Source: a bacterium
Lineage (GTDB): Bacteria; Patescibacteriota; Dojkabacteria; SC72
Assembly: GCA_021463465.1 (NCBI GenBank)
Contig: JAJTYH010000002.1
Span: 265,799-329,798 of the forward strand
DNA length: 64,000 bases
Direction: 5' to 3'
Positions 30,001-33,000 of the stretch are shown piece after piece (position 1 is the first letter of the stretch; each line of letters starts with the position of its first letter). Made by a program: the position numbers.

Positions 30001-33000
30001 AAATTTGCTAAGCCAGAGTCTGAATAGTCCCTCTAGCTTATAGTGTTTATTCGTAGTATAATAACCCTTAATCAAAACCGATTTTCATCCGTACTTTTAC
30101 TTGGTTAACCAGGCGTGTGCTTGGTTCCTAAATACGGGGAGAAAACCCCTAAAAATAGAAAAAGGAGTTTACAATGTTAACAAAAGTTCTAAGTTACATC
30201 TTTGTCGGTTAATTGCTGGCGTTATCGGCATGCTCGCCATCAAAGGACGAGCAACCGATGGTGATTGTGGAAACCACTACACCAAAACCAACGTCCACGC
30301 CCATCGAGGTTCAAATCTTTTTGACTGAACCTACATCGACAAAACCCTCAGCGATTTCAGAGCAAGTGGATTGCACTAGCCTGAATTACAAGGCTTACCA
30401 CGGCGAGGTTACGGGCGGGGTGCTTTCAACAACGGACGGCAAGGATATCTGGCCCGTCAGTTATGTCTTCTTGCCTCAAAGTGGCTCGATCATGACAGAA
30501 GTGAGACCTAACGGCTTATGGGCTGTGGGCATAACAATGGAAAAGCAGACTAAGGTCTACGAAATCCGAAACACCTCGCTAACATCGATTGCTAAAGATG
30601 CTGGCGAACTTCTTGCCATGCTCTCCTCACAATCCCTTGGAATTCACAGGATTACCAGTTGGGCAGGAGGGGGGCAAAGTGATCTCAGTCTCAATAATAT
30701 CAGCATACTGATGGTTGCGGTTGCCTGTAATGGAAATATTGTAGATTCTGGCTTCTATATGACCGAAATTCAAAAAAATCAGGAAGATCTTCCTGGTTTA
30801 GTCCATGCGGGCACGTATGTTTTCGACGGCAAAACGATGATATTCCTCGAAGATAAGTAGTGATGACCTGTTAGATGCCGGGAGGCTTGCAAATCTACAA
30901 GCCTCCTGGCCTTCACTACTTTTAAAAAGTATTTCAACGACTCATCACCTTACCCGCTATCTTCATCTTCCTATCAAACAAACCGTTTTCTTTTTTAAAT
31001 CTTGAATACTCTTTTTCATTTCTTGAAGTAACTTTCTTAACCCACTTCTCAAAAGACATATTCTCTTTTTTGTGGTCATAAAAAACTCTCTGTATATTTT
31101 CTATCCTCTCAAGGATAACTTCAAATCTTGAATCCATACCAGAGAGTCTAGAGTCAATCTCATCTAATCTACTAATTATTATTTGAATTTCAGCACTGCT
31201 CAACATATTAAGATGATATCTTAAACTAACAGACCATACCTATGATTTATGAAAACTTGGTGACTTCAATACTAATCTAACTCCATTCAAGATATACATC
31301 ATTCTAAAACCCTATTGCTTTGACAAAAACCTCTTCATTTAGTATCATCCCCATGTCCTAAGAAACATGGTATAAAAATAAATCCATGTGAGGCAAAAGA
31401 AATATCTGAAATATTAGAACAACATCATGGCTAAAAGCCGAGATAATAAATCTGAACTTTTAAAGAAGTACCAGAGCATCCTTTCTGGTCATAACGGATT
31501 TCTACTTGTTGATACAAGTAACTTGGATACTCTGTCTATCACATCTCTTAAAATGAAACTCAAGGACATAGGTTCAGACTTCATGGTCATTAAAAACACC
31601 ATCTTCAAGATTGCACTTCAAAACGAGAATAAAGATATTAAACTTCAGGATTTTGACGGTCAAACTGCACTTATTGTTGTTGGTGATGACCCATCTGCTG
31701 CTGCTAAACTTGTAAAAGAAGTTCAAGCAGACAAAAAGCTCATGAATGCACGAATGGGACTATTCCAAACCGAATTCCTCTCCTCCGAACGAGTCATGGC
31801 CCTTGCAGATATTCCTTCCAGAGAAGTACTTCTTGCTAAACTACTCGGTTCACTCAACTCACCTCTTACTGGCTTCATGAACGCAGCTACAGGTAACGCA
31901 AGAGGTTTTGTATTTGTCTTAAAAGGGTTATCTGAAAAAGGTAACTGATTAAGTAATTAATTTAAGTCTAAACATGAAAATGGCAGACACACCAAATCTT
32001 TCAGACAACGCTCAGAAAGTACTCGAAATGGTCGAGAAAATGACCGTTTTAGAACTTGCTGATCTCGTAAAGGTTATGGAAGAAAAATTCGGCGTGAGTG
32101 CTGCCGCTCCTGTTGCTGTTGCTGCAGCTCCCGCTGCCGCCGCACCTGCAGAAGAGGAGCAATCCATCTTCTCCGTTGTGCTTAAGGACGCAGGGGCGAA
32201 CAAGATTAACGTAATCAAAGCAGTACGCGAGATTACTGAACTTGGTCTTAAAGAGGCTAAGGATCTTGTTGATGCAGGCGCTGGTTCTGTGATTAAGGAA
32301 GGTCTTCCTAAAGCAGACGCTGAAGCAGCCAAGAAGAAATTTGAAGAAGCAGGAGCTACAGTAGAACTTAAGTAATTGCTAAATCAAACCTTTAAGGATA
32401 ACCGGGTCACATGGCCCGGTTTTGCTTTTTAAAGATATACACAGTTTCATTGCTAAATTCTCGGTTTGCTATAAGTGCATATCCACACTTGCTAACCTTT
32501 TCAACGTAGATTTTATAATTCTCCCTCATCCCCTTCTCTTTTCCACTCAAAGAACGGTTGGGAAAACTAACAACCAGATAATTAACCTCAAGCTTATTTA
32601 AGAACTCATCACACTTCTTAGAATCAATTTGATTCAACACTGGAAGCAGTTTAAAGAGGATTGCTAATTCGGCCCTGGGAAAGTCATACATCAAAGCGTC
32701 ACAAACTATAGCTTTCATATTTGTTTTACCTTCACTTTTAAAGATTTCATTCAAAAAGTGCTGCTGTGAAGTATCGATATCAAAACAGATATAGTCATCA
32801 AATTGTAAAGATGTGATCATCATAAGTATCGGATTCAACCCACACCCAATATCCAAGACACGTCGAGAAACTTCAGTATTTTCAGTTACAAAGGAGAGTA
32901 CTTTCTCACAATCCAAAGCTCTTTCCTTGGTTGAAGAATGAATCTTTACGATATCCGCCAATTCTATCTTTTTTCCCAAAAACTTTCCGAATAACTTTTT

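Follow-up and report, generated by a model that had tools for sequence, protein, structure and literature searches.

What separates rplA and rplJ, the genes for ribosomal proteins L1 and L10, by 1399 bp (positions 30028-31426) in an uncultured member of Candidatus Dojkabacteria (candidate division WS6, Candidate Phyla Radiation), and how did the intervening DNA come to be there? We addressed this question in a 64 kb stretch of contig JAJTYH010000002.1 (assembly GCA_021463465.1), referred to below as the window, the same sequence of which is also found in GenBank assembly GCA_020853275.1 and in many Logan assemblies. The assignment to Dojkabacteria is borne out by the source names given for the closest L10 proteins. 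An earlier reading made without database searches (the sequence-only reading) had proposed that foreign DNA was inserted into a normally inviolate ribosomal-protein operon. Our comparison with other Dojkabacteria suggests that the interval is probably a gene-turnover hotspot without a mobile element, situated between two separately transcribed ribosomal units.

The genes in this part of the window are, in order, a tRNA cluster, an open reading frame (ORF) of 130 amino acids (aa), rpmG, tRNA-Trp, secE, nusG, rplK, rplA, the gap, rplJ and rplL, past which there is an FmrO-type methyltransferase gene on the opposite strand. ORF calls and Pfam agreed with the sequence-only reading in placing the end of rplA at 30027 and the start of rplJ at 31427, and everything it had described in the gap was found in its place: a GC-richer plus-strand gene, a hairpin, a minus-strand ORF of 90 aa and a promoter of rplJ.

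All 1399 bp of the gap were identical in six independent assemblies from several studies which span it completely (L001-L006), and three more assemblies (L007-L009) cover its right part only. Elsewhere, L001-L006 differ from the window by a few single-nucleotide polymorphisms (SNPs) and one indel. Mis-assembly, which had been named as something that could undo the earlier claim, is thus excluded. The suggestion that the insert is an assembly chimera, or non-coding DNA with spurious ORFs, draws only on missing database annotation and is refuted by these six assemblies and by the homologues with conserved motifs which both ORFs have in other species; we give it practically no weight. Compared with all public same-strain assemblies (L001-L008), the window has one SNP (33041) and an indel at ~33314, at the start of the gene for a 7TM protein, which is 217 aa long in the window and 222 aa in those assemblies.

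The rplA-rplJ junction in Dojkabacteria

Loci were gathered via the L10 protein, giving 28 distinct Dojkabacteria loci which contain both genes, or 29 with the window. The gap between rplA and rplJ was 111-167 bp in 5 distinct loci, 457-633 bp in 7 and 1 kb or more (up to 4.2 kb) in 17; a split junction, with 0.46-4.2 kb of cargo, is the commonest state in Dojkabacteria (24/29). At two further loci rplA was not within 4.4-6 kb upstream of rplJ. Outside the Dojkabacteria, the two genes abut in 18 loci. The smallest gaps (111-167 bp) consist of promoter and leader only. In three close relatives of the window (L085, L086 and L089) the genes are contiguous, 111-148 bp apart, and synteny is otherwise identical. 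The proposal of a foreign insertion therefore stands in so far as DNA has been inserted relative to the ancestral state represented by these relatives, but the insert would not interrupt an operon, as it sits between two predicted transcription units. Nor is the operon normally inviolate, given the 24 split loci and the position of the insert at a unit boundary, upstream of a promoter and leader which are found class-wide.

The cargo is unrelated between loci and includes a YoeB/Phd toxin-antitoxin pair, other small paired ORFs, NAD-dependent epimerases, Cys-rich small proteins, a Cu-oxidase_4 gene and ORFs without assigned function. The small paired ORFs lie on the minus strand in the slot of more distant Dojkabacteria (L025 1789-2303, L032 1169-1733 and L040 4433-5024); the pair in L025 is the YoeB/Phd one, that in L032 has a sub-threshold match to a YafQ-type toxin only and that in L040 has no Pfam match.

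All Dojkabacteria loci, whether or not they carry an insert, have conserved the last ~110 bp upstream of rplJ, where its promoter and leader lie. The promoter keeps its position and sequence in relatives of both kinds; in the contiguous locus L085 its -35 hexamer starts 2 nt past the rplA stop codon. Whether rplJL had acquired or retained a promoter of its own was left undecided by the sequence-only reading; as it is also conserved in relatives with contiguous genes, it has been retained.

Downstream of the promoter, the 5' untranslated region (UTR) of rplJ is conserved in at least 25 loci and contains a compact leader element, which is present upstream of rplJ in L011-L046 and L082-L092. Across 25 Dojkabacteria sequences, 92% of cells in its two helices (P1 and P2) were paired, compared to 26-52% in slid controls, and 7/10 pairs change on both sides. 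It should be noted that the window's own P1 pairs in only 3/5 aligned columns unless one base is bulged. The AAGAAA and GA of the internal loop are near-invariant, and the arrangement of a UAA bulge with GA opposite GA looks like a kink-turn (K-turn) signature. The Rfam L10_leader model (RF00557) did not match the window leader at the gathering score or at E <= 5, and an Rfam scan of the gap and of the relatives' leaders gave chance matches only.

These features point to rplKA and rplJL being separate transcription units, as in E. coli, with the insert exactly between them. The promoter and K-turn leader of rplJL would fill the last ~110 bp before rplJ, so that DNA inserted between the rplA stop codon and the promoter would be tolerated. 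The features of the gap and its surroundings are listed in Table 1.

Table 1 Coordinates of the features of the rplA-rplJ gap (the slot), its borders and other genes of the window.
Feature	Position	Strand	Remarks
rplA (ribosomal protein L1)	29329-30027	+	Pfam Ribosomal_L1, E 4.6e-41; stop TAG 30025-30027; last gene of the rplKA unit, left border of the slot
Shortened promoter and 5' leader of the lipoprotein module	30028-30173	+	alignment with promoter blocks of L081, L084 and L082; -10 TATAAT 30057-30062; small hairpin 30136-30149; ribosome-binding site AAAGGAG 30161-30167
Lipoprotein gene, interrupted	30174-30860	+	in-frame TAA 30210-30212 = codon 13, in the signal peptide
Composite hairpin	30855-30921		folding free energy (dG) -34.9 kcal/mol, z -6.5; starts at the lipoprotein stop codon, between convergent genes; outer stem 30855-30868 / 30908-30921; asymmetric loop
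Inner stem of the composite hairpin	30877-30889 / 30898-30910		13 bp, GC-rich; dG -28.9 kcal/mol, z -5.3
Gene for the 90-aa coiled-coil protein	30934-31206	-	same-site homologues in four more species-level lineages
Spacer from the start of the coiled-coil gene to the rplJ promoter	31207-31319		presumed promoter of the coiled-coil gene
Consensus promoter match of the spacer region	31326-31298	-	weak; TTGTCA-17-AATGAT, 9/12
rplJL promoter	31320-31348	+	TTGACA-17-TATCAT; 11/12 consensus matches
rplJ 5' UTR	31349-31426	+	
rplJ leader element	31354-31396	+	two helices around a K-turn-like loop, covariation across 25 sequences; P1 31354-31358 / 31392-31396; P2 31366-31370 / 31384-31388; internal loop UAAGAAA 31359-31365 opposite UGA 31389-31391
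rplJ	31427-31948	+	Pfam Ribosomal_L10, E 1.4e-17; right border of the slot
rplL	31974-32375	+	Pfam Ribosomal_L12_N and Ribosomal_L12; forms the right border with rplJ (31427-32375)
Ribosomal protein S2 gene	16443-17540	-	365 aa
ORF between tRNA cluster and rpmG	27424-27816	+	130 aa
FmrO-family 16S rRNA methyltransferase gene	32407-33186	-	directly past rplL
7TM protein, ATP-grasp and peptidase genes	33298-40125		
ComEC, metallo-beta-lactamase domain ORF	60330-61193	-	DNA-uptake genes span 60330-63200
ComEC, Competence domain ORF	61160-62593	-	
ComEA	62562-63200	-	

Two genes with different histories

The minus-strand ORF of 90 aa, which had been described as a coiled-coil ORF, is a real gene, judging by its homologues in four other lineages, all on the minus strand at the rplA-rplJ site (L082, 81 aa; L084, 117 aa; L088, 79 aa; L092, 108 aa). 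The family has an N-terminal motif MLSSxDIQIIIxRLD, IDxRFE repeats and a C-terminal KMxxxGKxL; according to hidden Markov model (HMM) searches of all loci it is small and restricted to this Dojkabacteria subclade. No transmembrane segment was seen by eye, and the protein is taken to be cytoplasmic. In L084 there is a second copy just past rplL (2662-2994, minus strand), and rplJL is bracketed there by two minus-strand paralogues.

The plus-strand gene encodes a predicted lipoprotein. The sequence-only reading had overlooked both the in-frame TAA at codon 13 and the ancestral start, an ATG at 30174 which lies 13 codons upstream of, and in frame with, the TTG at 30213. What remains open (30213-30860) is GC-rich and encodes 215 aa. 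Translated through the stop, marked by an asterisk, the gene begins MLTKVLSYIFVG*LLALSAC. This can be read as a signal peptide (MLTK-VLSYIFVG*LLA-LSAC) with a positively charged N-region, a hydrophobic core and a lipobox L-S-A-C (Cys codon 30231-30233) which agrees with the pattern [LVI][ASTVI][GAS]C; the frame through it is not continuous, the TAA being present in all six assemblies. The sole relatives found, P0003 (230 aa), P0004 (242 aa) and the L084 protein (252 aa), have intact, alignable signal peptides, and in an alignment of the four homologues the Ala-Cys of the lipobox and two further Cys are invariant. Recoding of TAA was considered and rejected, because it is the main stop codon, ending 28/60 of the window ORFs. 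Since the stop interrupts the signal peptide, the gene is probably dead in this strain, and together with the loss of part of the leader the stop suggests that it was inactivated recently.

Database searches gave little indication of function for either gap protein: Pfam, PHROGs and NCBIfam held no curated family match and gave only sub-threshold coiled-coil or low-complexity matches. A profile search of the Protein Data Bank with the lipoprotein had no match, and AlphaFold2, run on a three-sequence alignment, returned an unusable model with a predicted local distance difference test score of 31. The lipoprotein is a predicted surface protein and a candidate for host interaction; the HMM searches found its family, too, only in the small subclade of the window.

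The promoter and leader of the lipoprotein module are AT-rich and 78-86% identical among L081, L082 and L084. These relatives conserve ~150 nt which are missing from the leader in the window, where the hairpins are weak (folding z = -1.9). This conserved non-coding block (L081 93-250, L084 41-200, L082 about 707-845; identity 78-86%) had only chance matches in Rfam and may be a regulatory RNA; a conserved small ORF within the leader was rejected because the reading frames differ between species. At the other end of the gene, the strong GC-rich hairpin which had been noted at 30878-30909 was recovered at 30877-30910 and is the inner stem of a larger, composite hairpin. The same architecture, with a conserved inner arm TGCCGGRAGGSC, is found after the lipoprotein genes of L084 (z -7.3) and L082 (z -9.2), and the outer-stem sequences differ between the three. 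A scan for consensus terminators did not call the composite hairpin, as it has no U-tract; it would most likely end or stabilise the two convergent transcripts.

The two genes are not equally widespread, there being five species-level lineages with the coiled-coil gene and three with the lipoprotein module. L092, whose L10 is 75% identical to that of the window, has the coiled-coil gene only. In a neighbour-joining tree of L10 and L12 (312 columns, 60 bootstrap replicates) the window groups with the pair L082 and L084 (80% bootstrap) and L088 is added at 72%, with the contiguous L086, L085 and L089 outside. In L082 the module is on the rplJ side of the coiled-coil gene, whereas the window and L084 have it on the rplA side, which requires at least two placements or one local move.

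We propose that the junction was contiguous in the ancestor, and that the coiled-coil gene is the older cargo, gained in the ancestor of the five sampled species-level lineages. The lipoprotein module would be a younger, self-contained unit, in which a promoter and leader precede a lipobox signal peptide and a GC-rich, fast-evolving mature domain, with the composite 3' hairpin at the end, and would now be decaying in the window strain through the nonsense codon in its signal peptide and the deletion of part of its leader.

A rival view, in line with the foreign insertion of the sequence-only reading, is that both ORFs arrived together on foreign, GC-richer DNA in a single recent horizontal transfer. 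The contiguous close relatives and the composition of the lipoprotein gene (described below) can be counted for it. However, the lipoprotein gene alone is GC-rich, the coiled-coil gene having a GC content of 0.32; same-site homologues of both genes are found in sister species whose L10 and L12 are only about 81% identical, and the arrival must therefore be old; and the different phyletic spreads of the two genes, with the module on varying sides, do not fit a single foreign insertion. Searches of 1.84 billion representative proteins and of phage and plasmid collections yielded no donor homologue, and we regard this scenario as very unlikely. Slightly less probable still is that the split state with these genes is ancestral and was lost by the contiguous relatives. 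Although most Dojkabacteria loci are indeed split, distant loci carry unrelated cargo, both families are confined to the small subclade, the contiguous L085, L089 and L086 branch outside the carrier clade and the minimum gap holds nothing beyond promoter and leader.

Composition and divergence of the lipoprotein gene

The sequence-only reading had described the lipoprotein gene as GC-richer than its surroundings, and the composition profile bears this out. The GC content of the ORF at 30213-30860 is 0.474, the highest of the 60 window ORFs (mean 0.381, sd 0.029), and its GC content at third codon positions (GC3) is 0.509 compared to 0.335 (sd 0.043), again ranking first of 60 (z = 4.1). The deviation lies mainly in third codon positions, with GC1 being ordinary. 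By tetranucleotide distance, 30201-30900 was second of 634 windows (z = 3.5). The coiled-coil gene is host-like or lower in GC, with no upward deviation.

The same genes are found at this site in relatives, and the composition of the lipoprotein gene is deviant there too: GC3 is 0.63 in L082 (neighbours 0.15-0.27) and 0.47 in L084 (neighbours 0.20-0.29), compared to 0.51 in the window (neighbours 0.335, the mean of the 60 ORFs); L081, a short contig with no neighbouring gene, has 0.52. Protein identity among the window, L082 and L084 was 88-93% for L12, 73-75% for L10, 69-79% for the 7TM protein, 44-58% for FmrO, 41-48% for the coiled-coil protein and 21-32% for the mature lipoprotein, the coding bodies of which cannot be aligned between species as DNA. 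L081 and L084 have leader, signal peptide and linker in common (73% over 398 nt), but identity between the C-terminal domains is no more than 27%. With an identity of only 21-32%, synonymous sites should have equilibrated and the GC3 excess should be gone. The high GC3 may reflect repeated replacement from a GC-richer pool, biased gene conversion or selection on the codons of this gene.

A less likely explanation would treat the lipoprotein gene as a cassette, either swappable or under active diversification, the body of which is replaced from a GC-richer pool or kept GC-rich by biased gene conversion, with the conserved leader and 3' hairpin serving as recombination or recognition sites. All four alleles have a GC3 (0.47-0.63) above that of the host (0.15-0.33), the bodies cannot be aligned between species and yet are framed by the conserved promoter/leader and 3' hairpin element, the similarity of L081 and L084 ends at the C-terminal domains and the position of the module, on opposite sides of the coiled-coil gene in L082 and in the window and L084, suggests at least two placements. 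However, the known alleles number only four, and the searches turned up neither a donor pool nor a recombinase, template repeat or reverse transcriptase. The lack of variation within populations (the six window-strain assemblies show 0 differences over 1399 bp, and four L082-strain assemblies show 0 over the gene) argues against an active diversification system. The neighbouring accessory genes for FmrO and the coiled-coil protein are strongly diverged too, so the surface protein may simply have diverged fast in the ordinary way.

We consider it unlikely, though worth keeping in view, that the module represents, in Dojkabacteria, a type of replaceable surface-protein cassette which has not been described before. 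Its coding body, GC-rich and hyperdivergent, would lie between a promoter/leader which is AT-rich and conserved and a composite 3' hairpin, likewise conserved, which starts at the stop codon. If this were true, the body would have been exchanged or converted repeatedly without a recombinase of its own, keeping its synonymous GC 20-45 points over the host in every lineage, and the slot between rplA and rplJ would be its preferred landing site.

Mobility, neighbouring genes and known systems

The gene-turnover hotspot, which we prefer, does not require a mobile element, and the sequence-only reading had reported neither an integrase nor a transposase. This extends to the whole window: searches of its 64 kb revealed no integrase, transposase or reverse transcriptase, and mobility genes were also absent from the relatives' inserts examined. 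A short cttggtt duplication, reported at ~30099/30119, does exist (at 30100 and 30120), but it is not flanking, as both copies are inside the 5' leader of the lipoprotein gene. A target-site duplication was rejected, with only chance-level short repeats being present (by chance alone one would expect a repeated 7-mer), and no flanking direct repeats (att) were found around the insert.

An exhaustive HMMER scan of the 1.84 billion representative proteins returned only two relatives of the lipoprotein. In a related Dojkabacteria genome (L079/L082) the gene for P0003 directly precedes rplJ, and that for P0004 is on a 1.1-kb contig without a ribosomal gene (L081), with a module promoter/leader in common with L084. 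The scan did not point to a donor lineage. A phage or plasmid origin was rejected as there was no match in IMG/VR, INPHARED or PLSDB. A diversity-generating retroelement was rejected as well: no part of 30028-31426 is repeated elsewhere in the 64 kb, there is no reverse-transcriptase-like ORF and the target does not vary among the six window-strain and four L082-strain assemblies. For an integron cassette we looked for attC cores in the correct order (RYYYAAC ... GTTRRRY) together with an integron integrase; the 67-nt hairpin is of the right size, but its sole core-like heptamer, GTTAGAT (30870-30876), lies on the wrong side; an integrase, too, is absent.

In Patescibacteria, both horizontal transfer and genomic islands occur commonly (PMC12455944). 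The likely route of entry would be DNA uptake via ComEA and ComEC followed by recombination in the very conserved flanking ribosomal genes. Several points weigh against our interpretation. No recombination event has been demonstrated, and most relatives are short contigs which are missing one flank. The transcription units are predicted from sequence alone, the tree was built by neighbour joining from 312 columns with 60 replicates and the pseudogene status rests on a single stop, after which 215 codons stay open, with re-initiation being possible at the adjoining TTG. A hotspot also leaves unexplained why the lipoprotein GC3 is 0.47-0.63 in three genomes in which that of the host is 0.15-0.33.

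Other features of the window are also worthy of note. The FmrO-family gene past rplL encodes a 16S rRNA methyltransferase of the aminoglycoside-resistance type and occupies the same place in most close relatives. Neither rpoB nor rpoC is downstream of rplL. All SNPs between two assemblies of the L082 strain (12/12) fall within this gene. Another variable spot is found between the tRNA cluster and rpmG, where the window has its 130-aa ORF without assigned function, L085 has a 320-aa ORF and L090 has UbiA and NDK genes. Downstream, a cluster encoding the 7TM transglutaminase-like membrane protein, ATPgrasp_ST, three further ATP-grasp proteins of RimK/GARS_A type and a MATCAP-like peptidase looks like a peptide-ligation or peptide-modification system. 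The ribosomal protein S2 has a C-terminal extension which matches the C-terminal domain of RNA polymerase alpha (PF03118, E 4.6e-6). The DNA-uptake genes comprise ComEA and ComEC, the latter as two overlapping ORFs.

Our results indicate that the textbook rplKAJL cluster is not inviolate across a whole class of the Candidate Phyla Radiation, and that the unit boundary behaves as a safe harbour for accessory genes. This matters where ribosomal-protein synteny serves binning, phylogenomic markers or quality checks of metagenome-assembled genomes. The analysis also yields a compact, covariation-supported rplJ leader for Dojkabacteria which is invisible to Rfam, and draws attention to a small family of surface lipoproteins, fast-evolving and anomalous in composition, in an uncultured, probably host-attached lineage. 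Its persistently high GC3 in an AT-rich genome is a testable puzzle of amelioration versus recurrent exchange.

In previously described systems, rplKA is co-transcribed and rplJL is under a leader which binds L10(L12)4, the defining feature of this autoregulatory leader being a kink-turn (PMC3616713). The window resembles E. coli rplKA and rplJL-rpoBC (RF00557; PMC3616713) in that rplKA and rplJL are predicted to be separate regulatory units, with an rplJ promoter of its own and a leader with a K-turn-like internal loop between two helices. It differs in that the leader, a putative L10(L12)4-binding element, is far shorter (about 45 nt) and missed by Rfam, and in that rpoBC is not downstream of rplL in the window.

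Like classical genomic islands, the insert is compositionally deviant accessory DNA which is missing from close relatives; unlike them, it is only 1.3 kb, has no integrase, tRNA target or direct repeats and deviates in composition in one of its two genes. Variable surface-lipoprotein loci, such as the variable lipoprotein genes of Mycoplasma, have conserved flanks and divergent coding bodies. The Dojkabacteria module is built similarly, its promoter and signal-peptide region being conserved and its mature domain highly divergent, and encodes a predicted surface lipoprotein of a reduced-genome, probably host-attached bacterium. In contrast to the Mycoplasma loci, it is single-copy, lacks a repeat-based switch and does not vary within populations, and the 64 kb contain no paralogous cassettes.

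Many hotspots of horizontal transfer lack mobile elements and rely on recombination at flanking core genes, especially in transformable species (PMC5635113), with cargo moving by double recombination in the conserved flanking core genes (Oliveira, Touchon, Cury and Rocha 2017; PMC5635113). The slot is alike in being one interval flanked by core genes which holds different accessory genes in related genomes (29 loci, 111 bp-4.2 kb), in having no integrase or mobility gene in the 64 kb or in the inserts examined and in the presence of encoded DNA-uptake proteins. The concept was defined within species (PMC5635113), whereas turnover in Dojkabacteria is class-wide and located at the junction of two ribosomal-protein operons. 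Our finding is a further example of something already known, a gene-turnover hotspot flanked by core genes.

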